Source: Patescibacteria group bacterium (lineage in GTDB: Bacteria; Patescibacteriota; Patescibacteriia; UBA1558; GWA2-36-10). Taken from it: a DNA stretch of 64,000 bases. The notes beneath the pieces are model-generated. The model made no database searches and was not told the DNA's origin. It saw only the letters and a list, made by a program, of their open reading frames with translations. The DNA is taken from NCBI GenBank assembly GCA_041650755.1, contig JBAZKN010000002.1, positions 69,030-133,029 of the forward strand. Direction: 5' to 3'. Numbering within the stretch: the first letter of the stretch is position 1; every line of letters begins with the position of its first letter. Below are positions 40,480 to 64,000 of the stretch, one piece after another. The translations under genes and the position numbers were made by a program.

Positions 40480-40506
40480 AGCGGGCTGTGGCCCGCTTTA
40501 TGTTTT
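40480..40506 (+). terminator. Rho-independent terminator after rsmA
   Basis: AGCGGGC-tgtg-GCCCGCT followed by TTATGTTTT. Confidence 0.5.
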
Positions 40507-40555
40507 GGAAATTTATTGAATTTATGTTATAATAAAGCTAAATCAAAATGATTTT

Positions 40556-41353
40556 ATGGCTAAAAAATTATACCAGATTGACACTGGCGAAGAAGTTGAT
40601 ATTAAAGATTTGATTAATCAGGATGAGTTGTCCATGCGTGGCGGTGGTCGGCGTAAATTAAGCAAGCAACAGCATCGCGTGCTGTGGCCTTTTTTAATTT
40701 TGAGTTTAGTTTTAGTGATATTTGTCGGTAGCTATTGGTATGGCAATATCAGGCAGTCGGTGCGCTATACTTTGCCGGATTTTATCAAAGAGCAATTGAC
40801 ATCCGACAAGACTGAAGAACAGCAAATCGCCGAATTAAAAAATAAAGACACTGATCACGATAGCCTGACGGATTATGCTGAGCTATATCAATACAATACC
40901 AGCATGTTTTTGGAAGATACCGATAGCGATGGGATATCTGATTACGATGAGGTGACCAAGGGCATGGATCCACTCTGCCCAGAGGGGCAAAGTTGTAGTT
41001 TATTAAAATTGATTACCCCCGAAAGCCACTTGGCTGATGTCTTGCGCGATGTCAGCGTTGATCAAAATCTGACTTTGCAGCAAGCCGCTTTAAATGAGTT
41101 CCGTAAATTTTTGATAGATAATGGCATGAGCAAAGAAGAGGTTGATTCTTTGAGCGATGATGATTTACTATCTATCATTCAGCTGGCCGATGAAGAGAAT
41201 ATATTGCCGGCCGAATCAATGAACGCCTCTACTACTCCCGAGCAAGTGCGAGAATTTTTGCTCAGTCAGCCAGACGCCGATCAAACCAGGATTAAGGAGC
41301 TAAGTAATGAAGAGCTGCTAACCATCAAAGACCAATTATTGAGTGGGCAATAA
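40556..41353 (+). CDS. Membrane-anchored acidic protein with thrombospondin-type-3-like Ca-binding repeats
   Basis: One TM segment near the N-terminus, then DTDHDSLTDYAE and DTDSDGISDYDE (DxDxDG-type) repeats and an acidic C-terminus. Confidence 0.4.
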   Translation: MAKKLYQIDTGEEVDIKDLINQDELSMRGGGRRKLSKQQHRVLWPFLILSLVLVIFVGSYWYGNIRQSVRYTLPDFIKEQLTSDKTEEQQIAELKNKDTDHDSLTDYAELYQYNTSMFLEDTDSDGISDYDEVTKGMDPLCPEGQSCSLLKLITPESHLADVLRDVSVDQNLTLQQAALNEFRKFLIDNGMSKEEVDSLSDDDLLSIIQLADEENILPAESMNASTTPEQVREFLLSQPDADQTRIKELSNEELLTIKDQLLSGQ

Positions 41354-41420
41354 TAAAATAAATCATTATAAAAAACGAAAATTAATCACCAGATATATTA
41401 TTAAGTAAATTTTTAACGGG

Positions 41421-44400
41421 ATGAGAGCTTATCAAAAAATATTATTAGGCGTCTTAGTGGCGGTGGTCGCTGCTACTATGATTTTTAGCATCCCAAAACC
41501 TCAGTCAGCTCAAGCTTTGGGTCCATCTTTGCCAAACTTTGTCGAGATAGCTACTTGGGTTTGGACACGTGCTAAATACGCATATCATAAAGTGGAAAGC
41601 GCTTTGACTAGCCAGCTCTTGGTACGCACTGTTGAAACTTATGTTAATAATCTGGCCTATAATATGGCGACCAGTATTGCCACTAATGGTGCAGGCGGTA
41701 AGCCATTATTTGAGACCAAAAGTGTAAAAAATGCCCTAAAACAGGCCCAAGAGGCAGCCGCCGGAGAGTTTATCGGCCAATTGAGCGCTAGCAGCTTTAG
41801 CCAATTGGGCTTTAACCTTTGCGAACCATCTTTGAACGTCAGATTATCTATTACCTTAGGCTTAATAGATTCTACTGCACCGCCAACGCCAAAGTGTAAT
41901 TGGCAAGATGTAAAATCCAAATGGGAGAGATTCGGTAATTTGACTATTTCTGATATGGTCAAATTTCAACTGGATACTGCTCCTAGTAAATATACTAGTC
42001 TTACTCCACTGGAGGGCAGCAGCAGCCGCATAAATGTATGGCAGAATTATGATGATTTTTTCAAGAGTTTTTCCTTGGAACAAAGTGATTGGGGTGTTTT
42101 TGGTAAATTGAATGAGGCTTATGAAAAAGCTCAACAAGATGCTGTGGCTGCCAAAGACACCTATCTTAAAATCTGCAATGGCTATCTAAATAATGAGACT
42201 ACTGTTAGTGAAGATGTCAAAACCACCTGTAAAGCAATAGTGGATTCACAAGGCGCGGCTTTGGCAACTTTGGCAGTGTCTGATATAGAAAAGATAAAAT
42301 TACCATCTCAGGTCAGCTCGCCCAACCCGAATTTGAGTCAGGTCATGAAGAATGCCGGCAAGTATTTTATCAGTACTCTAGCTTCCAAGTCACAGCCTAT
42401 TTTCTTGAAGCTGGTAAATAAATGGCTAAAAGAAGGCATGGCCTCTTTTGTGTCTTTATTTAAAAGTAATCAATCTTTGCGCGATGATCTTTTGGCTCAA
42501 TTGCGGGGAGGGGCAGATCTCTATCAGCCGCGCGGTGTAGATTTTTATTCTGAATTTAAAAAGATAGAATTTGACACCGTGGAGTCCTATGGTTTACTGG
42601 ATGATTTTGCCGTTTGTCCAGAAGATACGCAGTATCGTAAACCGGACAATTGTGTCATCTCGGCTGATTTTTTACAGGCTGTCAACAGCAAAGTCACCGT
42701 GCAGGAAGCGATCGATAGTGGCTATATCAATGGCGGCTTGCCTTTGGTAGGGCGCGACGATGCTTTGCGTGATAGTAATAGCCAGTGTTATCGGGATGGC
42801 TTGTGTTATAGTAATTTAGTCAAATTACGCAAAGCTAATATTATACCGGTAGGTTGGGAAATGGCCGCTCTCAAGAGCCCCAGTACCAAGCCAGCGACTT
42901 TGCAGCAGGCCATTGATTGTTTTGAAGATGACGCTAGTAAATGTAGCGTGCCGGCTACTGGCCATAATCCATATTATCATTTGATTGACCCTAATTGGAT
43001 TTTGAAAGCGCCAGCTGCTATTTGCAGCGCCTATGTCTACGCCCCAGTTTTGGAAGCACCAGATTCAAGCAATCGGCAGCAATATTGTGCCGACACCAAA
43101 GTATGTTTGCGCGAAGATGATAAAGGTAATTGTCTAGATGGCCAATATGGCTATTGTACCAAGAGTGAAAACATTTGGCGTTTTCAGGGTGATATTTGCC
43201 AAGATGGAGATATCTATAGCGGTTGTTTGACTTTTTCTGGCGCCAGCCGGCCGATACAATCATATTTAGAACAATCCTTAAGTTATTGTACGGCCGATCA
43301 GGTAGGCTGCCAGCGCTATTCCCAAGAGAAGAATGATGATGGCGAGTGGGTATTCCAAAGTATCGGTGCTGATGACAATGATTTATTTTTAAATAAACAG
43401 GCTCAAACTTGTTCAGCAGCTGAAAATGGTTGTTCGGAATTTATTATAATGGCGGCAGACAGTGGAGCAAATTTATTTGCCAACGGTGATTTTGAGATGG
43501 ATAGCGACAGCGACTTGTTGCCAGATGGATATGCAGTTTTTGACGTTGCTTCTGTGCCATTATTTGCGCCATATTTAGTATCTGGTCAAGGGGTGGATAA
43601 TTCCAACGCCGCGTTATCTAGAATCGGAGCGGGTAATGCTTGCCGCCGCATAGATGTTTTCCCCAATACTTTATATAATTTTTCCGCCTCCTTTAAGCAA
43701 TCAAGCATAGTTTCTCAAGCAGAAATATTATTACAATCTTGCACTAGCGCGAATAGTCAGCCTGGTAATATCAGCTCACCCGATGGGTCTTTTACAGTAT
43801 TTAATGATGGGGGCAGTACTTTCCCACCAAATAAAGGTTATGTCAGGTTGGAATCCACTGAGTATAATAATACTGGTTATACCCGTGTTGCCGGTACTAT
43901 CAATTCCGGTGATTCAGTTTCTTGTTGGGTATGCGCCGGCGGCGTAAATGAATATCAGTATGTGGATAATTTAAAAGTAGAAATAGTCAGTCAGCCGAAA
44001 GCAGAAGCGAATTATTCTGCTTATGGTGCCGGTGCCAAGATAGTTTTAAATGGCTCTCGCAGCATGTGCACTGCCCAAGAAGTTGGTTGTCAAGGATATA
44101 CTCCTAGTAATGGTGATCCAATGATTCCGGCTGTCATCAATCAGACAGATCTATGTCCGTCACAATGCGTCGGCTATGCTAGTTTTGCTCAGCAGACAGA
44201 TATTTTTGATGCCGTCGATCCTTTGAGCAGCAATGAAGTAGAATATTATAATTTTATTCCTAAAGATAAAAACACCAAGACTTGCCCAGCCCAAGCAGTT
44301 GGCTGCGAGGAGTTCACTAATCTTGATGAAGTAGCTAAGGGAGGAGAGGGCAAAGAATATTATACTTATCTCCGTCAATGCGTGGCGGAAGATCTGGGGC

Positions 44401-47400
44401 ATACTTATTATACTTGGGAGGGTTCTGATGTAGCCGGCTATCAGATTAAGACTTGGCTGGCTTTGTCTAGCAATAGCGGTGGCCCCTGTACCAATGTCGC
44501 CCCAGCTGGTGATGTCTGTCTGGATGACTCTAGCCCGAGTACAGCAGCAGCGATTTGTACAGCTACTGAAGCGGCTACTGACCCAAATTGTCGGCAGTTC
44601 TTTGATTCGGACGGGACATCCTATTATCGTTATCAAAATAGAATAATTTTTGCTAGCGGCGATTGTCACGATTATCGCCGCACGGCCACAGGCAGCACCT
44701 TTAGAGCCATTCCTTCATTGAGCACGCAGTGTGAGGCCCAGTACAAGGATTGTCGCTCTTATTATGGCAATACAGCCAATAATGTTTACCAGATTCTTAG
44801 CGATAACTTTGAACAGAATGTCTACTCACCTTGGCAAGCATATCTAGCCACGATTGACTTGTCTCCAGAGTCTTTGGAAAATAATGGCCATTCTTTGAAG
44901 ATAGTCAAGAGCGGTAATTGGGCAGACATATATCGCCCCTTAGGCATAGCTCCGGAAAATAATAAACAATATCAGGTCTCTTGGTGGATGAAAAATGATG
45001 CGCCGCTAAATTATGTCAGGGTGCGCCTAGTGCCATCATATAATGGCGGCGGTTATGTCAGATTTAGAGTCAAGGACTCATCTGTTATTACTGATGGATT
45101 TTTGGTGAATATTTTAAATGATAGTACTTTAAGCAATGTCAGTGCGGCTACTTGGCATCGGTTTGAAGCCAGCAATACGCTTGATTTCAATGATATCGTC
45201 TTAGATGCTGGCCGTACCCTAGCTGATATTAATTGGAATAATACGCTTTTGGTCATTGATGCTTCTAACTCTACTAGTAACGATCAATTATTTTTTGATA
45301 ATATAATTTTTAAAGAAGTCAATAGCAGCATTTCTGTTATTAAGAATTCTTGGCAAACACCAATAGCTTGCGACACTCCTTATACTGGTTATTACTTGGG
45401 TTGTCAGACCTACACCGATACCAATAATAATCAATACAATTTACACTCCTTTTCTAGCCTGTGTCGCGTAGAAGCTATTGGTTGTATGCCGGCTATTGAT
45501 ACACATAATTCCAGTAATCCATTTGCCGAGACTTTCAATGCTGGCGATAACTCTGAAATCACAGTACCGGCTGATAATACAACTTATTTGGTGCCGGATA
45601 ATACTAAATATTGCGCTAGCCAATATAAAGGTTGTATGGCCTTGGGTGTGCCAGACCTTACGCAGCCCAGCTATTTGACAACGGTATATAAGATAAATAA
45701 TCCTGATTATTATGGTACGACTTTGTGCCCCAGCACGGCCTTGGGTTGTGATGAATATATTTCCAGTAAGGGCACATATTATTTCCGTGATCCAGGCACA
45801 GAAACTTGTACCTACAAGAAAAATATATCAGTCGATGGCAGTATCGTGTCCGGCTGGTTTAAGACCAGCACCATAAATACCAACTCGCCGATAGCCTGCA
45901 ATGATTACAATAATGACGGATCAATAAATTTGAGCGATTCAGTATTGTATATGCAAGGGGAGCGTCAGGGCGCCCAGGTCTGTTCAATTGATAAAAATTT
46001 ATGCACGGCCTTCGTTGACCCATCGGATCCGCAGAGTTGCACTTTTGGTTATTGTGCCAATCTTTCTGGCACGCCAGAGTCTGGGTATGCCAGCCAGTAT
46101 GCCTGTGAATCCAATCCATCAATGAGATGGGTGCCGGGCACTTGCCAGACTTATTACTATTATAATAATGATAACATTGATAAGGATTCTTGTGCCGGCG
46201 AGGTAGATAAAAATAGTGGCTGCGCTTTGTTTTATGAGGCAAATGATTGGAACGCCGATCACAGTGCCGTCAATGTGACTTATGACTCTACTAAGACTTA
46301 TGATAGCAATGTGTCTACTGGTAAGCCGGTTAGTCCGGTAATTTGCAATAGTAGCCAGGATCCAACCTGCGAATTAGATGCTAATATTCTTCTGAAGGTA
46401 AAGAAAGATCGCCAGTGCGGGGAATGGCTGGCTTGTCGCTCTTCATCAGTGGTTTGGGATAGTGATAATAATAAATATAAAGTAGTTTGCGCTGACTTGA
46501 GTTTATGCAATGAGTTTGATCCGGATAATAATATCACTAAATGCGGCAATTGGGTTGATCCGGGGAACTTGCCGCTGACTGAGGACCTATATCAGAGCCG
46601 CACTACGGGAGCCAATAATCATTTGCAATGGGGCGACATGGACTATACTGGTTTTTCAATACCAGATTTCATGCCGGTTGCTGCTCTGACAGTGGTCAAT
46701 TTTGGCACAGCGGCTAGTCCAAATCCTCGCTTGGTTTACGCTGTCAGCAGCCCGACTTGTCTGCCAAATGGCCGCTCTTGTGATGTGGTTTTGGATGGCA
46801 CGACGTATACCGGCGTTTGTCAGGATCGCCAATGCACCATCAACCCAGATTTATCAAATAATAATTTATTGGTTGATACCCGCGGCTTCACTAGCGCCGA
46901 TGCTCCTTTTCCCATCAGTATTGCTCCTGACCAAAATCAGCTCGATAGGCTGGCAGCTTATGCGGGAGCCAACATGTGCCAATCGATCAATAGTTCTGGC
47001 GTTTCGACGCCAAACGGCTGTGAACTTTCTTATGTAAAATTAACTTATGGCAGTAGCGGTGAAGTGCGCTATTATCCAAAGAATTCACCCACGCCGAATG
47101 GTATCTGCACTTCTGGCGATTTAGATAGCAAGATCGATTGTGTAGATAGCAGTGGTGCGGTCAGAAATAATTTGTGCGACACCTATAATGATGATGGTAC
47201 TTCTCGGGCTGATGGTATGTGCTCCAAAAAAACAAAAGCTGAGACAGTCTATAATTGGCCGGGCATTTGTTTGGAAAAAGATTATAACGCTAAGTTAGTC
47301 AATGATACTGGCGGCAATTTTTATTGCAATCAATGGTATCCAGCCGAACAAATCAACGGCATGAATAGTCTGTATGACAATTATCGTGAGGCCGGGTATT

Positions 47401-49724
47401 ATAATCCGACCGGCCAAGATGCTCTATTTTGTTCAGTGGCCGAGCCCTTCCAATTGCAAACCGAAAGGATATATTGCGGTCGTCGTGGTGGGTCCGATCC
47501 AAATCACTGTAATCTACTTTTGCGCGTGCCGGCAGGCTCAAAAGTTTTAGTAAGTAATATGGCCGGCAATAATAATTTAATAAATTACGGCTATTTGCGT
47601 TCCAGTGCTTTCAATTTTGTAGAAGGCAACATGACCACTGGTCCTTATTATATGTTTGACCGCATAGAGAAAGTCGGTATAGATGTTGGTGTCTCTTACG
47701 AAGAGGCCAAGTTTTCCGTGGATGATTTCGTCATCGCCCCGGGCACCGATAAGGCCAACGTACCAGTGGTTGATAGAGCTGTGTTAGCTAAATTTTTTGA
47801 CACTGGCACAAACAAGATAGAGCTGTATTTTTATGATGAAGATATAAATAGAAACGGCGACGGTAACCCTGACGCTAGAATCTTGGTGCGCGATATTACT
47901 GCGCCAGCTTCACCCTTTGATTGTCAGGGAGTGATGAGCGATAGTGAGCCGAATGACGTCAGCAGTGTTTGTAATTGTGGTGTTGATATTCCGGGCCTGA
48001 CCGACAGAGGCTGTCACGAGGTCTGGCGTGGCCTATATAATCCTTTACCGTATAATTATTACGTTAAAGCAGAAACGCCGCCATTAGAGATAGTTACTGA
48101 GACCGATTGCAGCGATGCTGCTAGCGGTTATGCTTCCCCTCCGGGCAAGGGTATTGCTTGTTTAAATTCTCGCTCAACAACCTTTGCTAATTATTGGACG
48201 CAAATTACAAATGGCACGATTGCCAGCGAAGATGATTGTCGTGGTAACGCTAATTGTGAATTCGCTTGGTGTTTGTCGGGGCAAGTTACAGATAATGACA
48301 GCGCGACTGCGGGGTATCAATTGTATTGTTCAGAATTCGGCGGCATGTCCATTAGTGGTCGGGTATTTAACAGTATCTTTTTATCTAGTTCGTCTGGTAT
48401 TACCAGCTGTATGGACAGATTATTTTCAGTTGGCGCTTTGACGCAATATGGCTATTCAGTGAATGTTATAACATCAGTTGATCAGGGTCTACTAAGAGCT
48501 TTGTTCAATGATTCTAGTGCCACTTTTGAAATGACAGACATTTATGATTCTGATGACGGCTGCATAGAGTCTAATACTTCAGCCGCTACCAGCACCACTC
48601 CCAATGTGTATTTTGTCGATCGGCCATGTGGAATTGCTAGTAGTATTCAAAGCTGCATTACCTTTGGCCAATATTATACCGCTGAAATGTCAGGCAGCCC
48701 TTGTACTGGATTAGCTTGTTATCAGCAGTGTCGTTTGGTAGCTCAGTTGGATCCGGAAGGCGACAAATCTTGGGTGAGGACAGATATTTGGTGGCGCAAT
48801 GAAAACAATAGCCGCAATAATTATCCGGGAAATAATACTTGGTTATCGTACTATTATAAATCCAGCTTTTTGCAGAATAGCAACGTGAATTATAAGACTA
48901 TTACCGGCGAAACCGTGTCCTTTACTCATTTTGGGGCGGCTTTGGGTTATGTTGGCAAGGACGTAGTTAATGTTCGGGCGCCATTTAATGCCACGGCTTT
49001 TTCGCCATTGTCTACGGCTACATTCTTCTATCATTGGCCGGGCGGTCCCGCCAATTTATCCCTTACCCAAGCCTGGGGTACGGCCAGCGGGCAGTTAGAT
49101 TATTTATTCGTCAGGTCTTTTAATTTGCAGTGGAACAACACCAGCCAGACCTATGAGATTTTTGGCAGCCCAGTGGATATTTATGAAGGTAGTGATTTTA
49201 CCAACAAATATAATATTAAAGCTGGTCCAGATTATAATCCGGCGATTTTACAAGTTTGCGGTAACAATACTTGTGATAATGCCAGCGGTGTGACGGTCGA
49301 TGATCGTGGTTCTGGTGAAGTCAAAGCCAAAGAATCTCTGATGGTAGCCTTGAAGTTTTATTATTATGCTCATCCTGATCATATGCCGGTATCCAATATT
49401 ACGGTAAATTGGGGTGATGGTTCCAGTACGGTTTCTGCTCCGGGTAAGTACAAAAACAACATTCCTGATTGTAATCAAGACATACCAATGCCGGGCAAGG
49501 CAGCGGATACTTTGCAGGGCTTTGGCGGCACTGATAGAGCTTGCCGCGAAGGCTACAAGACTTTCTATCATGATTATCAGTTATCTTCCCCAGTCCATAA
49601 TGCCACTTGTAGTGCTACCGCGGCCGTTGGATCCGTCTGTTTTCAGCCGACCGTGACCGTTACTGACCATTGGGGAAATTCGACGACAGCCAACTTTGGC
49701 GGTCAAGTAGTGATAGAGCCTTAA
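41421..49724 (+). CDS. Giant (2767 aa) secreted Cys-rich surface protein with jelly-roll carbohydrate-binding-like domains
   Basis: Uninterrupted 8.3-kb ORF with a signal peptide (cleavage after AQA). About 100 Cys in recurring (V/L)GC(Q/E/M/D)x(Y/F) modules. Two CBM4/9-like regions (ANGDFE...DNLKVEIV; NFEQN...LFFDNIIF). Confidence 0.7.
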   Translation: MRAYQKILLGVLVAVVAATMIFSIPKPQSAQALGPSLPNFVEIATWVWTRAKYAYHKVESALTSQLLVRTVETYVNNLAYNMATSIATNGAGGKPLFETKSVKNALKQAQEAAAGEFIGQLSASSFSQLGFNLCEPSLNVRLSITLGLIDSTAPPTPKCNWQDVKSKWERFGNLTISDMVKFQLDTAPSKYTSLTPLEGSSSRINVWQNYDDFFKSFSLEQSDWGVFGKLNEAYEKAQQDAVAAKDTYLKICNGYLNNETTVSEDVKTTCKAIVDSQGAALATLAVSDIEKIKLPSQVSSPNPNLSQVMKNAGKYFISTLASKSQPIFLKLVNKWLKEGMASFVSLFKSNQSLRDDLLAQLRGGADLYQPRGVDFYSEFKKIEFDTVESYGLLDDFAVCPEDTQYRKPDNCVISADFLQAVNSKVTVQEAIDSGYINGGLPLVGRDDALRDSNSQCYRDGLCYSNLVKLRKANIIPVGWEMAALKSPSTKPATLQQAIDCFEDDASKCSVPATGHNPYYHLIDPNWILKAPAAICSAYVYAPVLEAPDSSNRQQYCADTKVCLREDDKGNCLDGQYGYCTKSENIWRFQGDICQDGDIYSGCLTFSGASRPIQSYLEQSLSYCTADQVGCQRYSQEKNDDGEWVFQSIGADDNDLFLNKQAQTCSAAENGCSEFIIMAADSGANLFANGDFEMDSDSDLLPDGYAVFDVASVPLFAPYLVSGQGVDNSNAALSRIGAGNACRRIDVFPNTLYNFSASFKQSSIVSQAEILLQSCTSANSQPGNISSPDGSFTVFNDGGSTFPPNKGYVRLESTEYNNTGYTRVAGTINSGDSVSCWVCAGGVNEYQYVDNLKVEIVSQPKAEANYSAYGAGAKIVLNGSRSMCTAQEVGCQGYTPSNGDPMIPAVINQTDLCPSQCVGYASFAQQTDIFDAVDPLSSNEVEYYNFIPKDKNTKTCPAQAVGCEEFTNLDEVAKGGEGKEYYTYLRQCVAEDLGHTYYTWEGSDVAGYQIKTWLALSSNSGGPCTNVAPAGDVCLDDSSPSTAAAICTATEAATDPNCRQFFDSDGTSYYRYQNRIIFASGDCHDYRRTATGSTFRAIPSLSTQCEAQYKDCRSYYGNTANNVYQILSDNFEQNVYSPWQAYLATIDLSPESLENNGHSLKIVKSGNWADIYRPLGIAPENNKQYQVSWWMKNDAPLNYVRVRLVPSYNGGGYVRFRVKDSSVITDGFLVNILNDSTLSNVSAATWHRFEASNTLDFNDIVLDAGRTLADINWNNTLLVIDASNSTSNDQLFFDNIIFKEVNSSISVIKNSWQTPIACDTPYTGYYLGCQTYTDTNNNQYNLHSFSSLCRVEAIGCMPAIDTHNSSNPFAETFNAGDNSEITVPADNTTYLVPDNTKYCASQYKGCMALGVPDLTQPSYLTTVYKINNPDYYGTTLCPSTALGCDEYISSKGTYYFRDPGTETCTYKKNISVDGSIVSGWFKTSTINTNSPIACNDYNNDGSINLSDSVLYMQGERQGAQVCSIDKNLCTAFVDPSDPQSCTFGYCANLSGTPESGYASQYACESNPSMRWVPGTCQTYYYYNNDNIDKDSCAGEVDKNSGCALFYEANDWNADHSAVNVTYDSTKTYDSNVSTGKPVSPVICNSSQDPTCELDANILLKVKKDRQCGEWLACRSSSVVWDSDNNKYKVVCADLSLCNEFDPDNNITKCGNWVDPGNLPLTEDLYQSRTTGANNHLQWGDMDYTGFSIPDFMPVAALTVVNFGTAASPNPRLVYAVSSPTCLPNGRSCDVVLDGTTYTGVCQDRQCTINPDLSNNNLLVDTRGFTSADAPFPISIAPDQNQLDRLAAYAGANMCQSINSSGVSTPNGCELSYVKLTYGSSGEVRYYPKNSPTPNGICTSGDLDSKIDCVDSSGAVRNNLCDTYNDDGTSRADGMCSKKTKAETVYNWPGICLEKDYNAKLVNDTGGNFYCNQWYPAEQINGMNSLYDNYREAGYYNPTGQDALFCSVAEPFQLQTERIYCGRRGGSDPNHCNLLLRVPAGSKVLVSNMAGNNNLINYGYLRSSAFNFVEGNMTTGPYYMFDRIEKVGIDVGVSYEEAKFSVDDFVIAPGTDKANVPVVDRAVLAKFFDTGTNKIELYFYDEDINRNGDGNPDARILVRDITAPASPFDCQGVMSDSEPNDVSSVCNCGVDIPGLTDRGCHEVWRGLYNPLPYNYYVKAETPPLEIVTETDCSDAASGYASPPGKGIACLNSRSTTFANYWTQITNGTIASEDDCRGNANCEFAWCLSGQVTDNDSATAGYQLYCSEFGGMSISGRVFNSIFLSSSSGITSCMDRLFSVGALTQYGYSVNVITSVDQGLLRALFNDSSATFEMTDIYDSDDGCIESNTSAATSTTPNVYFVDRPCGIASSIQSCITFGQYYTAEMSGSPCTGLACYQQCRLVAQLDPEGDKSWVRTDIWWRNENNSRNNYPGNNTWLSYYYKSSFLQNSNVNYKTITGETVSFTHFGAALGYVGKDVVNVRAPFNATAFSPLSTATFFYHWPGGPANLSLTQAWGTASGQLDYLFVRSFNLQWNNTSQTYEIFGSPVDIYEGSDFTNKYNIKAGPDYNPAILQVCGNNTCDNASGVTVDDRGSGEVKAKESLMVALKFYYYAHPDHMPVSNITVNWGDGSSTVSAPGKYKNNIPDCNQDIPMPGKAADTLQGFGGTDRACREGYKTFYHDYQLSSPVHNATCSATAAVGSVCFQPTVTVTDHWGNSTTANFGGQVVIEP

Positions 49725-49751
49725 ATTTAGTATAAAAAATTAAAATATTTT

Positions 49752-52385
49752 ATGGTCAAAATTTCATTTTCAGCCTCAAAAAAATGGTTTGTGCTTCTGA
49801 CTATCCCTGCTGTATTTTTATTTTTCCCCAACTTGGCTTTTGCTGAAGTTAGTGCCCTAGCAAAATTTTTAGGCGAGGTCATACACTATCTTTTTATTGA
49901 GCTGCCGGCCTTTTTATTGAAAAAGGAAATGATTTTACTGCCAATTATTGCTCAATACAACAATATTACCAATCAGCCTGGTGTGATCACTGCTTGGAGG
50001 ACTTTGCGAGATTTAGCTAATATGTTTTTTATTGTGATTTTGTTGATCATGTCATTTGCCACCATTCTGCAAGTCAGGAGCTATGGCTATAAAGCGCTGC
50101 TTAGAGATCTGATCCTTTACGCGATTCTTATTAATTTCAGCAGGACGATTGTCTCGGTTTTGGTGGATGCGTCTCAAATTGTGATGCTGACTTTTGTGGC
50201 CCCCATAAAAGACGTGGTGGGCAGTAATGTCATGGCTGCCTTGGGTCTTTATCAGATTATGCAGATGACCAATAATCCGGAAGTTACCAGCAATTCTTTT
50301 CTGATGGCTATGGGCCTGGGTGCTATTATGTGTATAATAGCCGTGGTGGTGATTGCTGTATTTATCGCTATGCTGGTTGCCCGCATTGTGTTTTTGTGGA
50401 TTTTGACAGTGACTGCCCCGATGGCATTTTTAGCCAATGCTTTTCCCAAGACAGCTTATTTATATAAAGATTGGGAAAATGACTTAAGCAAATATTTGAT
50501 TACCGGTCCGGCAATCGCTTTCTTTTTATGGCTGGCTTTTACTGTGGTAGGCAATGCCAATATTTCAGATTCTTTTAACGTGCCGGCTGAATTGAAAGAG
50601 GATCCGCAAGTGACGGAAACTGGTGCGCCCTCAGAGGTGAGCCAAGCTGCTCAAGTCCCAAATCTTATAAATTATGTCATAGCTATTGCTATGCTTTTGG
50701 GCGGCTTGAACTATGCAGCCAAAGCCGGCGTAGCTGGTTCTGGGTTGGCTGGCAAGGCGCGAGGTAAGATAAATGATGTCGTAAGTAAAGCCGGCAGAAA
50801 AGTAGAAAGGGGTGTTACTGGCGCTGTCAGTGGCACTGCTCGAGGAGCTGTCAGGCTGGCTTGGCAGGGCACTAGCGGCGAAGGCGGAGCCAAAGAAGTT
50901 TTGAGTAAAATGCGCGCCAGTATAGGCACAACTCTAGCTGATGATAATACGCAAAGATTATTGCGCAGGACTGGTTTGGCGGGTACTGCCTTGCGGGCCG
51001 GCAGGCGCATGGAGGCTAAAGAGAATTTGCGTCGCGGTCGTAAGACTGCTTATTTTGAAAAACAGATGGAAGGCATTACTGACGATGAACAGAGATTGCA
51101 ATATGCACAATCAGTCGGGAGAGGGTGGGGCAGACGCGAAGCAGCAGCAGTTTTTTATAAGACCAATGTAGATAATAATAATGAACTGCATGATATCGAT
51201 CCTACGCGCATGACTAAGGAGCAATTGCGAGAGATATATGGGGTTGATAGTGTTGACCAAGTGGATCAGAACCTAGTAAGTTCTCGTACAGCTCAAAGAT
51301 ATAAGGATATGAATGCGGCTTTTCAAGCTGCTGGTGATACTGCTTCTGTAGAAAAATTGCGCACCAGAAGCGTGGCTGTCCATACTAATGAAAGTCTAGG
51401 TAGATTAATCCAAGAAAAGGGCGTTGGCGTTTTGAGTAGAATGGATATGAGCGGTTTGGATAACGAAGAGTTGAGGGCCGTTATGCAGCGCATCATGAGT
51501 CAAGATCAAAAAGCCTTAAGCAAGACGGTTGATGATATGGAAAAAAGAAAGCGCGAGATATTTATGCATGCTTTGGGCAATGTAAAAAGCGCAGGCCACC
51601 TGGAAGGCAGCTTAACTAAAGATGATAGTGATTCTGCTTTCTATAAGGCAGCTATGCTGCAAGCCAGATTTGATGGTAAGAACTCCGACACCAATGGTTT
51701 GGCCGACCAATATAAAGATCTCGATGAAGAAGATCAAAAAGGATTTATATCAAACTTGCGCAAGATTATTAGCGGTGATGAGATATTAAAAATTAACAAT
51801 AGTACCAGCTTATTTAAAGATATGTCCGGTCAGGCCAATGCTGGTCAGCGCACGCAAATGAAAGACAAGGCTACTGATGAGCAAATGCAAGCCGTAGTTC
51901 AGAACCAAATCAGGCTTGGTAATATCCAGATGATAATGAAAGATCCGGTTTTTGGCCCGATAGCTCAGAAGAATAATGCGGATGATGTTGATGCGTACTT
52001 CAAGGTTTTGCGTGATGCAGCCGGGACATTGGCGGATAAGATTAAGGCCGCCAATCAGAACATAGAATATGGCCACAAGATTTTTGCAGGCGATAAGGAC
52101 GGCTTATATGCCTGGGCCAGAACTTTGAAACCAGCCGATCTCATCAAAATAGATGATAAACTAACACTTGACGATATTGTTGACAATGGCAAATTGCCGG
52201 AAAATATGGTTGAGGCTATGGCAAAACTCGGCTATGGTAGTATCAAACCCTCTGCTGGTGGATCGAGCGCTGGTGCGGCCAGACCAGCTCAAGCTATTCC
52301 AACAGCTGCCCCCAGTAATCAAGCTCCAGGATCAGGCGGCGGCGTGCAGGCAGTAATCAACAAAAGATTTGGTAAGAATAAATAA
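49752..52385 (+). CDS. Polytopic membrane protein with VirB6/TrbL-like topology and a ~550-aa hydrophilic tail
   Basis: Signal peptide, 6-7 TM helices in the first ~330 aa, then an A/G/K/R/E/Q-rich low-complexity C-terminus. The call rests on architecture only. Confidence 0.35.
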   Translation: MVKISFSASKKWFVLLTIPAVFLFFPNLAFAEVSALAKFLGEVIHYLFIELPAFLLKKEMILLPIIAQYNNITNQPGVITAWRTLRDLANMFFIVILLIMSFATILQVRSYGYKALLRDLILYAILINFSRTIVSVLVDASQIVMLTFVAPIKDVVGSNVMAALGLYQIMQMTNNPEVTSNSFLMAMGLGAIMCIIAVVVIAVFIAMLVARIVFLWILTVTAPMAFLANAFPKTAYLYKDWENDLSKYLITGPAIAFFLWLAFTVVGNANISDSFNVPAELKEDPQVTETGAPSEVSQAAQVPNLINYVIAIAMLLGGLNYAAKAGVAGSGLAGKARGKINDVVSKAGRKVERGVTGAVSGTARGAVRLAWQGTSGEGGAKEVLSKMRASIGTTLADDNTQRLLRRTGLAGTALRAGRRMEAKENLRRGRKTAYFEKQMEGITDDEQRLQYAQSVGRGWGRREAAAVFYKTNVDNNNELHDIDPTRMTKEQLREIYGVDSVDQVDQNLVSSRTAQRYKDMNAAFQAAGDTASVEKLRTRSVAVHTNESLGRLIQEKGVGVLSRMDMSGLDNEELRAVMQRIMSQDQKALSKTVDDMEKRKREIFMHALGNVKSAGHLEGSLTKDDSDSAFYKAAMLQARFDGKNSDTNGLADQYKDLDEEDQKGFISNLRKIISGDEILKINNSTSLFKDMSGQANAGQRTQMKDKATDEQMQAVVQNQIRLGNIQMIMKDPVFGPIAQKNNADDVDAYFKVLRDAAGTLADKIKAANQNIEYGHKIFAGDKDGLYAWARTLKPADLIKIDDKLTLDDIVDNGKLPENMVEAMAKLGYGSIKPSAGGSSAGAARPAQAIPTAAPSNQAPGSGGGVQAVINKRFGKNK

Positions 52386-52394
52386 TAATTTTTA

Positions 52395-53642
52395 ATGACA
52401 ATATTATCCGAATTGCAACAATTACCAACCGAGGTAAAAGATATTATTTTTAGCAATGATTTAGTAGAAAAAAATCAAGCTTTGGCAGATAAATTTTTAT
52501 TAAACCAAAGCCAAATCAATTTAATTTTAGATTTGGAAAATTTATTATTTTTGAAGAAATTATCACCATTAGATTTGCCGACTCGCTTGGAAAGCATGGA
52601 GCGAGCCAGCTACTATGATTTGCGGGCGATTACTTTGGATATTGCCCAAAACATCCTTTGGCCGCTACAAGATTATCTGCAAAATGTCGATCGCCTGATT
52701 TTGCGTTTGGGTGGCAAAGTGCCGAGGGCCCAGCATCTAAAAAGCGTGACTTTGCAAAAAAGGCTGTTTCCCAGTTCAGCCTCTGGCACGGTCAAGCAAT
52801 TTTTGTCTAGCTTTGATGATTTTAAAGAGCTGAGACTAACTGCCAAAAAAATTACGGATAATAATGGCCGGCTGATTACCCCTTCGGTAGATAATTGGCT
52901 TAAAGATTATAATCATTTTTTAGGAGCAGGCTATCATAACTCTTTGCAGCGAGCCCAGTATCTAGCCAAAGGGCCAAATTGCGTGCCTTTGGAGCTTGGG
53001 GAAAAAGAGTCGTTGCGCAATTTTCTTTTGTCTTATGATGATGATCTTGGCATGCAGTGGGAGAATAATGAGGGCATGCTCAAGGTCCAGCTGCCCGTTT
53101 CTGCCCCAAAATCAGATAAGCCAGTCAAAGTAGATTTAGACAAGGCTGTAGCCGAGCTGCAGCAGAACATAAAGAAGATAGAGCAGATAGCTTTACCGGC
53201 CGATTTTATTTTATCAGAGGCGGGAAATGATCTGTTTAAAGTCAGGGATATTTTGTGGCAGGCTGTCGGTACTGAAGATAAAGAAAAAGCCTTGAGTTGC
53301 CTCAAGGTCCTGGTCGAAAAGAAATCTTTAGATAGTTTGATCGCCGAGGATAATCGTTTTCGCAGTATTTTGAAAAGATTTATCGGCATTCGCTATGGTT
53401 CAGGTTTCAATAATTGGCTGGAGGGGAACTCTGATAAATTATTGGCCCGTCGTCTATTTTTAGAAATGATTTTGGCAGATAAATTGCGCTGGCCAGAGGC
53501 AGAGGCTGCCACCATAGCTTTTTATTTGACCAATCTTTGGCCGCAATCTGGTCAGGTGGTTTATCTGGATGCTACTGACGGCAATCTCAAATGGCGTATC
53601 ATGCAAGTGATGAAAGATAATCAGCTGGCTTGGCGAGATTAA
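52395..53642 (+). CDS. Hypothetical soluble protein
   Basis: 415-aa ORF with no recognisable motif; 10-nt gap from the upstream gene. Confidence 0.35.
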   Translation: MTILSELQQLPTEVKDIIFSNDLVEKNQALADKFLLNQSQINLILDLENLLFLKKLSPLDLPTRLESMERASYYDLRAITLDIAQNILWPLQDYLQNVDRLILRLGGKVPRAQHLKSVTLQKRLFPSSASGTVKQFLSSFDDFKELRLTAKKITDNNGRLITPSVDNWLKDYNHFLGAGYHNSLQRAQYLAKGPNCVPLELGEKESLRNFLLSYDDDLGMQWENNEGMLKVQLPVSAPKSDKPVKVDLDKAVAELQQNIKKIEQIALPADFILSEAGNDLFKVRDILWQAVGTEDKEKALSCLKVLVEKKSLDSLIAEDNRFRSILKRFIGIRYGSGFNNWLEGNSDKLLARRLFLEMILADKLRWPEAEAATIAFYLTNLWPQSGQVVYLDATDGNLKWRIMQVMKDNQLAWRD

Positions 53643-56818: not shown

Positions 56819-56852
56819 AAACCCTGCACCGTATGGTGCAGGGTTTATTATT
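56819..56852 (+). terminator. Rho-independent terminator after efp
   Basis: CCCTGCACC-gtat-GGTGCAGGG followed by TTTATTATT. Confidence 0.55.
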
Positions 56853-56904
56853 GGCGAGCGATGGCAAAATATGTTATAATATAGGAAATAACAGACACAA
56901 AATA

Positions 56905-58128
56905 ATGGCTGATTTTAATCAAGCTAATGCTCAGGTAATAGATCGGGATTGGTTGGATGATTTGTTGATCAAAGAACCAAGCGGTCGCTTGCATTCCTTT
57001 CGACAAAGTAGCCCCAGCGACGAATTTAAGGTGGCTTTCCCCAAAGGTTCAGCTGCTGTGAAGCCATTGCAGGATTTTGATGTGCCGATGCCGCCAAGTA
57101 TTTATGTTGCTCCGGCTGACGATAGCTTCAATTGGCAGACGATAGTGGGGCACCCGCAGGCAAAAGCTAGTTTGGTGTTTCATCCTGATGACGAAGAACA
57201 CCTTTCTCAAATAATGCCCAATGTGCCGATTGATGAAAGTAAAAAATATAGCCTTGATAAGATAGTTGCTCGTTTGATAGCCAAACAACAATTGAGCCTG
57301 GACCAGGCAAATAAAGAATTATTGACCAATGTTTTGTTTGACTTTTTTCGTAACCGCAAAAACAGTCAAACTGCCAGAGAATATCTGGCCGGCAAATTAC
57401 TTTTGGCTGGTCAACCTATCAGCGTTGGCGATTTAGACACAATTTTATCTGTAGTCAAAAGCATTAAGGCCAATATTGAAGCGGTGGGTGGCTTAGTGGT
57501 CAAGGACGATTTTTTGACCTCGTCCTCTCAATTTAAGCCAGTGGAGCCGGTAGCTAAGACGGATTTACCTACCGTACCAGAGCCTCCCAAGATAGAACCG
57601 GCAGAGTTATCACCTCAGAAGACTATTGAGCCAGAGCCAAAATTATCACCCAAAGTTGAAGCCCCGACTCTAGCTGTAAAAATAGAAGCAGATTTACCCA
57701 AAGTTAATCGTCCGCCAGTTGATCAAGAGGTAAAACCAAAAATTTCTGATGTAAAGAATAAGCCAATTGCCACTGCTGCTAGGTCAGCGCCTGCTAGCAA
57801 AGTTTTGGTCGGACCGGTGCAGGAACTGGAGAGTATGACCTTGGCTAATTTTAGGCGACTAGGAGCAAGCGCAGTCGATCGGGCAGAAAAAATTCACAGC
57901 AAGATATCAATTTTAGAAAAAGATTCTATTACCAAAAAATCTTTGGGGATTGCTGCTTGGCGCAAAAGCCCGGTTTATAGGCTATATTTGGATTTGGGCG
58001 CGGCTAGCCTAGTGCAAAACAAAGAGATTGCTACCCTGGTTCAAGAGCAGGCCAACCAGGGCGTAGCTACTTTAAGTTGGGAAGAGTTTAATGCCATTGG
58101 TGATTTAAATAAATTATTACGTTTTTAA
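56905..58128 (+). CDS. Hypothetical protein with a central Pro/Glu/Lys-rich linker
   Basis: PEPPKIEPAELSPQKTIEPEPKLSPKVEAP repeats. Start chosen at MADFNQ (56905). Confidence 0.35.
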   Translation: MADFNQANAQVIDRDWLDDLLIKEPSGRLHSFRQSSPSDEFKVAFPKGSAAVKPLQDFDVPMPPSIYVAPADDSFNWQTIVGHPQAKASLVFHPDDEEHLSQIMPNVPIDESKKYSLDKIVARLIAKQQLSLDQANKELLTNVLFDFFRNRKNSQTAREYLAGKLLLAGQPISVGDLDTILSVVKSIKANIEAVGGLVVKDDFLTSSSQFKPVEPVAKTDLPTVPEPPKIEPAELSPQKTIEPEPKLSPKVEAPTLAVKIEADLPKVNRPPVDQEVKPKISDVKNKPIATAARSAPASKVLVGPVQELESMTLANFRRLGASAVDRAEKIHSKISILEKDSITKKSLGIAAWRKSPVYRLYLDLGAASLVQNKEIATLVQEQANQGVATLSWEEFNAIGDLNKLLRF

Positions 58129-58131: not shown

Positions 58132-58596
58132 ATGCAAAATAGGTTTATTGTACCGCAATTTATTGATGCTGAAGACAAGATCTGGGGGCCCTTGACCGTC
58201 AGGCAGTTTGTGATCATGATTTTAGGCGGTTTATTCATATTCTTGAGCTACAAGTTGTCTGATTTTACTTTATTTTTATTCCAAACGGTAGTTATTATTT
58301 TGTTGGTTGTGGTGCTGGCCTTTTTGAAAATAAATGGCGCCCCTTTTCACATGTTTTTATTGAATGTTATTCAAACAATCAAGCGTCCTTGGGTCAGAAT
58401 TTGGCACAAAGAATATATTAAAGTGGAAGACTTTCGGGATAAAGGGGAGCTAATAAAAGAAGAGCCAATCCCCCAAAAAACTTTTTTACCCAATAAAAAA
58501 TTATCAGAATTATCTTTAATTATTGACACTGGCGGCGTATACAAAGGCGAGTCAGAAGCCAATATTATAAATAGCACCACAGCGATTAAAAAATAA
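58132..58596 (+). CDS. PrgI/VirB3-like small membrane protein of a type IV secretion apparatus
   Basis: N-terminal IVPQFIDAEDKIWGPLTVRQFVIMILGG motif followed by two TM helices, matching the PrgI-family pattern. Lies immediately upstream of VirB4. Confidence 0.5.
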   Translation: MQNRFIVPQFIDAEDKIWGPLTVRQFVIMILGGLFIFLSYKLSDFTLFLFQTVVIILLVVVLAFLKINGAPFHMFLLNVIQTIKRPWVRIWHKEYIKVEDFRDKGELIKEEPIPQKTFLPNKKLSELSLIIDTGGVYKGESEANIINSTTAIKK

Positions 58597-58599: not shown

Positions 58600-59286
58600 A
58601 TGAAGAACAAAAAATTAGCTGGCAATCGGCCATCCACTTCGACGCAGAGATTTTTGGATATTGCTGAAATTAGAGACGATATGGTTGTTTTAAATGACGG
58701 CACAGTCCGGGGAGTTTTATTGGTCTCTTCTATCAATTTTGATTTGAAATCAGAGGATGAACAAGCAGCTATTATTAGTGGCTATGTCAGCTTTTTAAAT
58801 ACTTTAGACTACCCTTTACAGATTGTGATCCAATCGCGCCCTTTAAATATTGATGATTATTTTGGCCGTTTGAAAAAAGTGGAAAAGGAGCAAACCAACG
58901 AATTGCTGCGTATGCAAACAGCTGATTATCGACAATTTGTGGAAGAGCTTTTGACCTTGGAAAAGATTATGAGCAAGCGTTTTTATATTGTAGTGCCATA
59001 TAATTCAGCTGGCGATAAGAGTAGAAAGTTTACCAATCGTTTTGCCGCGGTTTTTTCTACTGCTAAAGTAGTGCGTTTGAGCCGCAAGCGTTTTACTGAA
59101 TTTAGCAACCAGCTGACCAAGCGCTGCAATTTTATTCAGGCAGGTTTAAACTCATTGGGTCTGCGCAGCCAACGCTTAAATACCCAGGCCTTGATTGAAT
59201 TATATTACAACAGCTATAACCCGAATATTTTCCAAAAACAACCGCTAGAAGATATAAATAAGCTAAATTTAGAAACCAATGTTTGA
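58600..59286 (+). CDS. N-terminal segment of a VirB4/TrbE-family protein, encoded separately
   Basis: DIAEIRDDMVVLNDGTVRGVLLVSSINFDLKSEDEQAAIISGYVSFLN matches the first conserved block of VirB4 N-domains. An 8-nt overlap (ATGTTTGA) links it to the next ORF in the +1 frame. Confidence 0.5.
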   Translation: MKNKKLAGNRPSTSTQRFLDIAEIRDDMVVLNDGTVRGVLLVSSINFDLKSEDEQAAIISGYVSFLNTLDYPLQIVIQSRPLNIDDYFGRLKKVEKEQTNELLRMQTADYRQFVEELLTLEKIMSKRFYIVVPYNSAGDKSRKFTNRFAAVFSTAKVVRLSRKRFTEFSNQLTKRCNFIQAGLNSLGLRSQRLNTQALIELYYNSYNPNIFQKQPLEDINKLNLETNV

Positions 59287-61220: not shown

Positions 61221-61793
61221 ATGACTGCACAAAACAGAAAAAGGATCATTATTATTTCCATAATTATTTTGGTTTTGGTCGGCATCTTTTTAATAATTTG
61301 GAGACTGACAAATTTTGGCAATCCGAGGATAGAGGATAAGACTAATGAAGCGCCAAAATTTGTGGCCCCTAGTGCCAAGCTTGAGTACAAGGATGTGCCA
61401 CCAGCTGTAAATAATACTGAATTTACCGTAATGAATTTAGCTCGTAATTATGCCGAGCGCTTTGGTAGCTGGTCGACCGATCAGCCCGGACATAATTTGG
61501 AGGAGCTTTATCCTTTGAGCACCACTAAGATGATCAAATATTTAAAAACTCTCAACACCGATACGAGCCAGAGCCAATTTTCTGGCGTTAGCACCAAAAC
61601 CATAACGGCAGAAATAGAAAATTTAAACAGTCAGACAGCTGAGGTTTTTGTGAAAACACAACGCCTAGAGACCAAAACCAGCGGTCCGGCATTAGTTGAA
61701 GACACGATTTATCAGGATATAAAAGTTAGCCTAGTAAAATCTGGTGAAGATTGGCTGGTAGACGGGGCGTATTGGCAGGAAATAAATCCATAA
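61221..61793 (+). CDS. Bitopic membrane protein, candidate VirB8-like T4SS component
   Basis: One N-terminal TM segment plus a ~150-aa extracytoplasmic domain, positioned directly after VirB4. Assignment rests on size, topology and position only. Confidence 0.3.
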   Translation: MTAQNRKRIIIISIIILVLVGIFLIIWRLTNFGNPRIEDKTNEAPKFVAPSAKLEYKDVPPAVNNTEFTVMNLARNYAERFGSWSTDQPGHNLEELYPLSTTKMIKYLKTLNTDTSQSQFSGVSTKTITAEIENLNSQTAEVFVKTQRLETKTSGPALVEDTIYQDIKVSLVKSGEDWLVDGAYWQEINP

Positions 61794-61796
61794 ATT

Positions 61797-62345
61797 ATGG
61801 CAGAAGTCTTAGCCAATCAAAGAAGGCAGTTTTTAGCAGATCAGAGAGAACCGGAGAGGTCAGAGCAGGGTCAGGCCGAGGGCGATGCAGTCGAGCAAGA
61901 TTTGGCTGCCGGTGAGGATGCCCGCTCGCAAGCCAGGGTTCTGCAGAGGCAACAGAAAGCTGACAAGCAGAAGTCAGCCGCCAGTCAAGTAGAGGGCCAA
62001 GTTGAGCAAGCGGTTCAGGAGCAGGCCAAGGCTGTTGCTAAGCAAAGTGTTTTGCGCTGGGTAAATGTAGCTCTGGGTTCAACTATATTATTGTTCGTTG
62101 TCACAGTCTTGATTTGGACTTTCCAGTTTATAGTTGGCAATGTATTGGAATCAAAAATCGTGCCACCACTGAAGTTGTGGGAAATCATATTGTGGCTGGC
62201 TTCACTTTTATTATTAATGGGGGTGACTTTATTGATAGTCGCCATGATCAGCTTTATGGTCAAAATCACTCATTTCGATTGGGATGCCATAAAAATTTTA
62301 GGCGAATCTCTGTGGTCTGCCTTTAAAGACGCCTTTCATTTGTAG
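61797..62345 (+). CDS. Hypothetical membrane protein (two to three C-terminal TM) with a Q/A/E-rich N-terminus
   Basis: ORF only; the N-terminal 90 aa are low-complexity. Confidence 0.3.
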   Translation: MAEVLANQRRQFLADQREPERSEQGQAEGDAVEQDLAAGEDARSQARVLQRQQKADKQKSAASQVEGQVEQAVQEQAKAVAKQSVLRWVNVALGSTILLFVVTVLIWTFQFIVGNVLESKIVPPLKLWEIILWLASLLLLMGVTLLIVAMISFMVKITHFDWDAIKILGESLWSAFKDAFHL

Positions 62346-62375
62346 TAGTTTTTCAAAAGGTATTATTTTAAATTT

Positions 62376-63602: not shown

Positions 63603-64000
63603 ATGGTTTCAAAAAAGGGAAAATTATTGTTTTATTTCTGGGTCAACCTACTTTTTTGGTTGCCGCGTCTAGTTGGAGCGCAAGCTAGTTCAGCACCTTC
63701 TACTGACTCAGCGGCCGGTATTTTATTTAAACCCAGCATAGGCATACCCTTAGAAAATACACCATTTTCCGGAGCCACTACTACCATTACCGCTGACTCA
63801 ATAGGTCAATATATCAATGCTATCTATAGATATGGCGGTATTTTGGCCGGCGCAGTGGCTTTATTTATGCTGGTCTATGCTGGCTGGCAATGGCTGTTTG
63901 CTGCCGGTAATAGCGGCAAGATAAATCAGGCTCAAGAGACTATCCGTATGACTTTGATAGGCTTAGCCTTTTTATTTGGCGGCTATTTGTTGCTTTCTTT
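63603..64000 (+). CDS. Partial ORF (runs off the window): candidate VirB2/TrbC-like pilin
   Basis: Signal peptide, then GGILAGAVALFMLVYAGWQWLFAAG, a short polar loop, and a second hydrophobic helix LIGLAFLFGGYLLL, the typical two-helix T4SS pilin layout. Confidence 0.3.
   Translation, partial: MVSKKGKLLFYFWVNLLFWLPRLVGAQASSAPSTDSAAGILFKPSIGIPLENTPFSGATTTITADSIGQYINAIYRYGGILAGAVALFMLVYAGWQWLFAAGNSGKINQAQETIRMTLIGLAFLFGGYLLLS

Follow-up and report, generated by a model that had tools for sequence, protein, structure and literature searches.

Does a giant cysteine-rich protein encoded next to a putative secretion channel supply the host-contact part missing from the type IV secretion systems (T4SS) of Patescibacteria? 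The question is raised by a block of four adjacent genes, called here A, G, M and U, in a stretch of 64,000 nucleotides (hereafter the window, meaning the whole stretch analyzed) that belongs to a 236-kb metagenome contig from a Patescibacteria group bacterium. The T4SSs of Patescibacteria are MPF-FATA-like and chromosomal, are frequently located near ksgA and comprise VirB4, PrgI/VirB3, VirB6, TrsD and VirB2-like pilins, and no PrgB-like adhesin was found for them (Quinonero-Coronel et al. 2025, PMC12102498). As cited in that study, the only Patescibacteria species so far tested by genetics cannot grow epibiotically without its T4SS. Its role in Saccharibacteria has been called "completely unknown," with uptake of host material proposed (PMC11665869), and a 2026 preprint described tubes between a host and its cultivated parasite that were suggested to represent T4SS pili (10.64898/2026.06.21.733656). 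A novel transmembrane family adjoining virB6 has been mentioned (PMC10849945); in the literature, we found neither the G family nor its T4SS linkage described.

Our best reading is that A, G, M and U form the surface and channel half of the chromosomal monoderm-type (MPF-FATA-like) T4SS locus of a bacterium from the Komeilibacteria/Uhrbacteria/Falkowbacteria group, and that G is the best candidate for the missing host-contact part of the Patescibacteria T4SS. For G itself we propose, with the balance about even, a Sec-exported, disulfide-stapled surface protein whose variable C-terminal and carbohydrate-binding module (CBM)-like regions would bind host-envelope glycans and which would be tethered by, or assembled with, A to serve the T4SS as a contact factor.

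The giant protein G and its upstream neighbor A

The four open reading frames (ORFs) are all present on the forward strand with short gaps, as had been predicted from the sequence. The gaps measure 67 nt between A and G, 27 nt between G and M, and 9 nt between M and U. NCBI annotates their products as hypothetical proteins (WC465_02660 to WC465_02670). A promoter-like pattern ahead of A suggests a transcription unit beginning at that gene, and a convergent methyltransferase gene bounds the block on its downstream side.

Signal peptides and transmembrane (TM) topology were judged from hydropathy and inspection. G starts with MRAYQK (basic residues R2 and K6), followed by a hydrophobic stretch (residues 7-24 by inspection, 3-27 in a hydropathy scan) that leads to AQA followed by L at positions 30-33, and the PxPAxA site of this leader is conserved in the alignment of the family. 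The original prediction of a giant with a signal peptide and about 100 cysteines agrees with this Sec-like leader and with the 102 Cys residues (3.7%) of the protein. A motif search of the whole protein found no LPxTG, and Pfam and NCBIfam yielded no match to a PrgB-type or other adhesin domain in G.

The cysteines had also been described as forming a module that recurs every 80-120 residues. The module is real: C-x6-C occurs 10 times in G against 3.7 +/- 1.9 times in shuffled sequences, and nine of the copies fit C-[TSPAE]-x4-[GD]-C-x-x-[YFA]. Its spacing was misjudged. Profile-profile self-comparison, by hhalign of sub-alignments, gave a repeat unit of about 20-30 residues, with copies near residues 615-633, 651-680, 870-899, 943-969, 1094-1119, 1330-1358, 1386-1408 and 1517-1532 that are irregularly spaced and clustered in five places. 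The regular repeat was thus rejected in favor of a short clustered module. As anticipated, this module corresponds to no Pfam or NCBIfam family, and neither database matched a known repeat array in G (Big, FN3, PKD, Myxococcus Cys-rich repeat), so that no curated model accounts for the repeats. It would represent a new family of Cys-hairpin modules, with about 1200 sequence clusters, for which Pfam and NCBIfam hold no model.

In an alignment of 36 sequences reaching down to 27% identity, 45 cysteines of G are invariant and 52 are conserved at the 90% level or above. Cys is the best-conserved residue type (0.77), with Trp at 0.55. Such conservation suggests structural disulfides. Cysteines conserved in at least 90% of the sequences amount to 13/17 in core 1, 11/14 in core 2 and 23/40 in cores 3 and 4 combined. 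Mean identity was 0.40-0.47 in the Cys-rich cores (0.47 in core 1), compared with 0.19 and 0.26 in the two CBM-like domains and 0.17 in residues 2041-2600, where only about one-fourth to one-third of the homologues align. Conserved cores next to variable CBMs and a variable tail are what one would expect if fast-evolving binding surfaces were mounted on an unchanging scaffold.

At least two jelly-roll regions resembling carbohydrate-binding domains had been proposed for the giant, and several lines of evidence support the CBM fold. The motifs ANGDFE (at residue 687) and LFFDNIIF (at 1290) bound the two regions. Pfam CBM_4_9 matched residues 1124-1203 of G at an E value of 0.003 and 18.4 bits, under its gathering score of 25.9 bits, and it matched 12 of 16 members of the G family, with a best E value of 5.9e-13. 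hhalign paired residues 816-859 with residues 1241-1303, the family profile matched the solved CBM4 of laminarinase 16A (E, 4e-6), and a fold search with the structural model identified a beta-jelly-roll superposable on solved CBMs. The G modules share this fold and the edge motifs NGxFE ... DN/DD with CBM4, CBM16 and CBM22; they differ from them in being embedded among the Cys-hairpin modules of a giant without an enzyme domain, and carbohydrate binding is a prediction.

The remaining regions of G matched nothing in Pfam, NCBIfam or PDB, and the comparison of the G sequence itself with PDB was unproductive. We built an AlphaFold2 model of residues 1-1115 from a 33-row alignment. The confident parts lie at about residues 390-530 (pLDDT, 72-91) and 960-1115 (pLDDT, 70-92) and in portions of the CBM; only the CBM domain was placed by fold, and no other fold match was listed for this model. 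The N-terminal region (residues 33-398) has the conserved motifs LAY..A...ATGG.G.KPLF, AAGEFIG and GFNLC.P; it is modeled as helical with pLDDT mostly below 50 and has no database match. Core 1 is marked by NLVKLRKA..PVGWE.AA, HLIDPNWVLK and YGYCT. At the other end of the protein, PKD_4 matched only one of 16 family members, and that weakly (E, 0.01), which makes a PKD-like C terminus no more than a possibility.

Homologues of G all belong to Patescibacteria (among them Komeilibacteria, Uhrbacteria, Falkowbacteria, Nomurabacteria and the "Parcubacteria group"); their lengths range from 2400 to 3700 residues, and they align collinearly with G. When residues 390-1115 served as the query, a word-index-free search retrieved 1225 cluster representatives at E values of 1e-3 or below (1049 at 1e-30 or below), nearly all of them giants aligned at the same position, and a scan of species genomes confirmed at least 531 G loci. 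Among the contigs of species representatives with this Patescibacteria-specific locus, many (L006, L010, L019 and others) bear the title "uncultured Gammaproteobacteria bacterium," which looks like a mislabel.

Upstream of G, a membrane-anchored calcium-binding protein with DxDxDG repeats had been expected, and A conforms to that description, calcium binding being a prediction. It is a single-pass protein (TM residues 39-65); after the TM segment come two DxDxDG motifs of the TSP3 type, a conserved C-P-x-G-x-x-C and a C terminus that is acidic and helical. In the window, one motif is a canonical DxDxDGxxDxxE, DTDSDGISDYDE, and one is degenerate, DTDHDSLTDYAE; both are predicted Ca loops. Pfam TSP3_bac (PF18884) matched residues 121-140 at 21.8 bits (E, 1.7e-4), below its 25-bit cutoff. 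The family consensus reads DTDxDGLxDydE...DtDsDG..D..E...G.DPnCp.G..C, and 70 of 75 orthologues have the TM segment with at least one motif (two motifs in 53, one in 17). In 71 of 72 loci, A directly precedes G.

M, U and the linkage to T4SS genes

The product of M had been guessed to be a VirB6/TrbL-like protein with six to seven TM segments and a low-complexity tail of 550 residues. The topology held up in outline, with about 6-7 hydrophobic segments within residues 11-323 (Kyte-Doolittle scan) and a tail of about 547 residues. The tail is probably cytoplasmic, because it is rich in K and R directly after the last TM segment (positive-inside rule). M of the window did not match Pfam TrbL (PF04610; gathering score, 25.9 bits) even at E values up to 1. 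The family does so: 12 of 40 aligned members matched, and three orthologues 30-35% identical to M (P0130, P0143 and P0152) exceeded the cutoff with 30.5, 33.0 and 32.0 bits, respectively, over the TM domain (profile positions 5-182 of 215). These matches bear out the guess at the level of the family, where M is classed as TrbL/VirB6. The M-family profile retrieved from PDB noise due to the low-complexity/coiled-coil tail and no VirB6, and the membrane domain gave no meaningful tblastn match in 72,556 plasmids.

M has in common with TrbL/VirB6 proteins the polytopic N-terminal domain, a long hydrophilic C-terminal extension and VirB3/VirB4 neighbors, whereas it is too diverged for the Pfam model and its tail is not conserved even inside its own family. 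Long-tailed VirB6-like proteins occur in Gram-positives and Rickettsiales. The X431 protein encoded downstream was considered as a second VirB6 and rejected; it has no TM segment, no similarity to M and no Pfam match. M is thus the only VirB6 candidate of the locus. One M homologue, P0171, carries the name "DMT family transporter."

The fourth gene had been listed as a mere unknown, which underestimated it. U is a soluble, mostly helical protein with no TM segment and no known domain, 42-64% identical among relatives and modeled with confidence (pLDDT, 89). Its profile has no match in PDB, and it matches positional equivalents in three distant loci, in the slot between the VirB6 and PrgI/VirB4 genes. 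By profile and position, U is classed as a conserved member of the T4SS locus.

A T4SS-like module had been noted 5 kb downstream of the block, and PrgI, TraC-like and VirB4 genes are indeed present there, X431 beginning 3.2 kb downstream of U and PrgI/VirB4 lying 5.7 kb downstream of M. Mere nearness was too modest a description, as the block and this module are two halves of one locus that adjoin each other in other genomes. The ORF at the end of the window codes for a signal peptide and two hydrophobic helices and passes the threshold of PF18895 (E, 8e-8; 32.7 bits versus a cutoff of 26.6 bits), which means that a VirB2-like pilin is part of the locus. Pfam scans of the window genes revealed neither a relaxase nor a coupling protein. 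Y190, with one TM segment and about 150 residues, is positionally conserved and could be a VirB8 analogue. The counterpart of Y405 in locus L085 has a weak beta-propeller match.

We compared the gene order of 82 related loci and counted the linkage to M and to T4SS genes over the 52 with 3.5 kb or more of flank. M was found downstream of G in 33 of these, within 1.2 kb in 27 and often overlapping it, and T4SS core genes were inside the flank in 20. The spacing between G and M ranges from -54 to +44 nt in 21 loci, suggesting co-transcription. The order G-M-(U)-X431-PrgI-TraC-like-VirB4 is uninterrupted in L027, L038, L069 (complete genome CP129476) and L077, and PrgI and VirB4 are contiguous with M in L027, L069, L077, L084, L085 and L086. 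L084 encodes a 2911-residue G homologue, followed by an insertion sequence (IS) element and then M, U-like, X431-like, PrgI and VirB4 genes. In L085, from Nomurabacteria, three large proteins, one with a CBM and another with 81 Cys, precede a TrbL-positive M with the same downstream order.

In loci with a distance of 4.6-6.6 kb between G and M, the gene directly upstream of M codes for a secreted protein of about 580-670 residues with 9-11 Cys (L023, 23604-25676; L064, 21174-23336; L067, 17707-19482; L079, 21973-23829), and small lipoprotein-like genes precede this gene. The housekeeping block made up of the methyltransferase gene and rpsF-ssb-rpsR-efp keeps its window orientation in relatives of the window, is inverted as a unit in L015, L019, L021, L036, L048 and L053, and is absent at L027, L069 and L077. 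Both T4SS halves keep their place in the six loci with the inverted block.

With respect to disulfide formation, candidate phyla radiation (CPR) genomes are enriched in MdbA-like oxidoreductase and VKOR, which act on extracellular disulfides (bioRxiv 10.1101/335083). No DsbA or VKOR gene was found inside the window. A gene for a thioredoxin-fold/DsbA-like protein ends the T4SS locus in L084 (18802-19515), L085 (22655-23189) and L086 (19754-20545), which fits disulfide-bonded extracellular components.

Weighing the readings of the locus

In the scheme we favor, G would leave the cell through Sec, fold extracellularly into a scaffold stapled by disulfides and be displayed at the surface. Its C-x6-C hairpin modules and about 50 conserved cysteines would build a rigid stalk, and the fast-evolving jelly rolls and the variable C-terminal third would touch host-envelope glycans. 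A, as a membrane-anchored Ca-binding protein, would most likely tether G or help its assembly; M would be the VirB6/TrbL channel subunit of the locus, and U a cytoplasmic partner encoded straight after it. By analogy with PrgB in Gram-positive conjugative T4SSs, A and G may hold the host cell at the secretion/uptake machine.

On pCF10, the surface adhesin genes prgA, prgB and prgC lie upstream of prgH-prgI-prgJ. Like the prg region, the window encodes secreted surface proteins, here predicted ones, upstream of and co-directionally with VirB6-like, VirB3-like and VirB4 genes (see PMC12102498), and the proposed role in cell-cell contact is alike. The resemblance of G to PrgB is one of position and proposed role only: G lacks sequence similarity to it, an LPXTG sortase signal and domains of the polymer-adhesin or Ig-like kind, is twice as large and Cys-rich, and has CBM-type jelly rolls. 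The G locus is also chromosomal and not obviously conjugative. Compared with the T4SSs described for Patescibacteria (PMC12102498), the window has the same PrgI, TraC-like, VirB4, T4SS pilin and TrbL-type VirB6 components and the same proximity to ksgA; in its lineage, the locus is split by the housekeeping block. That study has no adhesin and left unannotated neighbors grey, whereas here G, A and U are recurrent members of the locus. These three uncharacterized conserved families, which travel with virB6/virB4 across hundreds of species, would be concrete candidates for the docking of ultrasmall cells onto their hosts, and they open targets for cryo-electron tomography and for assays of glycan binding, and the variable domains could serve to predict host range.

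Several observations weigh against this scheme. The model of G residues 1-1115 is poor, with a mean pLDDT of 58. In the window, U is cut off from the VirB4 half by the convergent methyltransferase gene and rpsF-ssb-rpsR-efp (53649-56793). In 19 of the 52 loci, mostly of the Uhrbacteria type, the 4-10 kb downstream of G contain neither M nor a T4SS gene, and L086 has the same T4SS order with no giant upstream. Furthermore, leuS, sua5, an MFS gene and ksgA are also syntenic with the block in the same genomes, and since housekeeping genes share the synteny, the proximity of G to the T4SS may be inherited gene order and not a sign of functional coupling; taken by itself, it is weak evidence. The VirB2-like pilin of the locus could itself mediate contact.

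The T4SS-free flanks, the giant-less L086 and the shared synteny of housekeeping genes would all be explained if A and G made an autonomous surface structure, an adhesin or an envelope/S-layer-like scaffold independent of the T4SS, whose adjacency to virB6 reflects inherited gene order near ksgA. This is a possibility to be taken seriously, if one we hold only tentatively. The A-G pairing (71/72) is far more constant than the G-M adjacency (27-33/52), and large Cys-rich extracellular proteins with no reported link to a T4SS are described in CPR. Those of Peribacteria have a signal peptide, are about 1650 residues long on average and contain 7% Cys; they are encoded in a 14-gene cluster, some show FG-GAP or Myxococcus-repeat similarity, and attachment was proposed for them (Anantharaman et al. 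2016, PMC4736985). They are like G in coming from CPR and in being large, Cys-rich, equipped with a signal peptide (a predicted one in G) and proposed to act in attachment; they belong to another lineage, and none of the searches with G revealed homology to them, all matches being giants of the G architecture. The short or overlapping G-M junctions of 21 loci speak against autonomy. The linkage also outlasts rearrangements, namely, the inverted rpsF-ssb-efp block and the IS insertion in L084, and L085, despite its different G architecture, still has large Cys-rich/CBM proteins ahead of virB6.

The position of G directly upstream of VirB6 could mean instead that G is a structural extracellular part of the T4SS, such as a stalk, conduit or pilus-tip complex on VirB6, replacing the outer parts missing from monoderm systems. 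We regard this as unlikely. Constraint is much stronger on the N-terminal and Cys-core regions than on the binding-type domains, VirB6 proteins of the M family have a leader and predicted extracellular segments, and the tubular parasite-host structures of the 2026 preprint (10.64898/2026.06.21.733656) would suit such a part. However, a VirB2-like pilin is already encoded in the locus, many T4SS loci have no giant nearby, and PDB sequence and fold searches returned no structural similarity to T4SS components. A bolder form of this idea, which we find similarly improbable, makes G the extracellular working part of the T4SS, i.e., a Ca-dependent, disulfide-stapled stalk seated on VirB6 and assisted by A that bridges to the host envelope and guides the import of host nucleic acids or nutrients. 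If true, it would be an extracellular architecture for a monoderm T4SS without counterpart in described systems.

We consider it very unlikely that G is a secreted glycan-targeting enzyme or toxin combining its CBMs with an unrecognized catalytic or lytic domain to breach or feed on the host envelope. Modules of the CBM4/16/22 type normally accompany glycoside hydrolases, two members of the G family have dockerin domains, and about 90% of G is unannotated, leaving room for a novel catalytic domain; yet none emerged from Pfam, NCBIfam or the PDB sequence and fold searches, the conserved residues are mainly Cys, Trp, Tyr and Gly, as is typical of structural scaffolds, and the CBM-like domains are the least conserved parts of the protein. 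Finally, the original prediction had named read-mapping evidence of an assembly artefact as a possible undoing of the 8.3-kb ORF, and an assembly or gene-calling artefact can be dismissed, as this suspicion draws on nothing beyond a general wariness of very long ORFs in metagenome bins, whereas an identical G protein is recorded in NCBI, JGI, ENA and Logan assemblies, M is found on three contigs, the GC content of the block is uniform with that of the surrounding sequence, and full-length collinearity holds across the family, in hundreds of independent assemblies.

Features of the window and side observations

The features are collected in Table 1.

Table 1. Features of the window, in order of position
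Feature	Coordinates	Strand	Size	Basis or remark
Terminator-like hairpin AGCGGGC-TGTG-GCCCGCT with T-rich run	40480..40497	+		3' of ksgA; consensus scan, pattern match only
Promoter-like site TTGGAA-17-TATAAT, extended TG	40505..40533	+		23 nt 5' of A start codon; pattern match only
A	40556-41353	+	265 aa	ORF
G (giant)	41421-49724	+	2767 aa	ORF
G residues 1-32, predicted Sec-type signal peptide or uncleaved signal anchor	41421..41516	+		Inspection, hydropathy
G residues 33-398, Cys-poor N-terminal region, predicted helical	41517..42614	+		Alignment; AlphaFold2 model
G residues 399-683, conserved Cys-rich core 1, two C-x6-C modules	42615..43469	+		Alignment, repeats
G residues 684-860, CBM4/16/22-like beta-jelly-roll 1 (ANGDFE ... 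YVDNLKVE)	43470..44000	+		
G residues 861-1120, conserved Cys-rich core 2, three C-x6-C modules	44001..44780	+		
G residues 1121-1302, CBM_4_9-like jelly-roll 2 (SDNFEQ ... LFFDNIIF)	44781..45326	+		Pfam, hhalign
G residues 1303-2040, conserved Cys-rich cores 3 and 4, further C-x6-C modules	45327..47540	+		
G residues 2041-2600, lineage-variable region	47541..49220	+		Alignment
G residues 2601-2767, conserved C-terminal domain, WGDG motif, possibly PKD-like	49221..49724	+		VDWGDG...DNW conserved
M	49752-52385	+	877 aa	ORF
M residues 1-333, diverged TrbL/VirB6-type polytopic domain, leader ending AFA, then E	49752..50750	+		
M residues 334-877, tail of low conservation, Ala-, Gly-, Lys- and Asp-rich	50751..52385	+		
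U	52395-53642	+	415 aa	ORF
X431, soluble, Pro-rich linker, upstream of PrgI	56833..58128	+	431 aa	Positional homologues
PrgI (VirB3-like)	58132..58596	+		Pfam PrgI, E 4.5e-10
TraC-like	58600..59286	+	228 aa	Precomputed PF26593; conserved position
VirB4-like ATPase	59279..61186	+		P-loop_TraG E 9e-29, AAA_10, CagE_TrbE_VirB
Y190 (1 TM), Y182 (2-3 TM), Y405 (1 TM and beta-rich domain)	61221..63593	+		TM scan; no Pfam assignment
VirB2-like T4SS pilin, ORF continues past window end	63603..64000	+		T4SS_pilin PF18895

Transposases of the IS200/Y1 and rve types were found at locus edges in L002 (24301-24876), L003 (19523-20110) and L084 (7820-8869 and 21334-22398). In L003, a transposase gene occupies the point where M and U are missing.

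In the leucyl-tRNA synthetase of the window (34902-37796, 964 residues), the editing domain is followed by an inserted NUDIX domain (residues 396-512; E, 1.3e-13). At the equivalent place, the leucyl-tRNA synthetase of L004 has an alpha/beta-hydrolase insertion instead.

Over positions 1-64000 of the window, almost all 2-kb bins have a positive GC skew, the cumulative skew climbs monotonically, and nearly all genes are on the forward strand. Skew and strand bias would fit a long leading-strand stretch; T4SS loci of this kind are placed near the origin in the literature.

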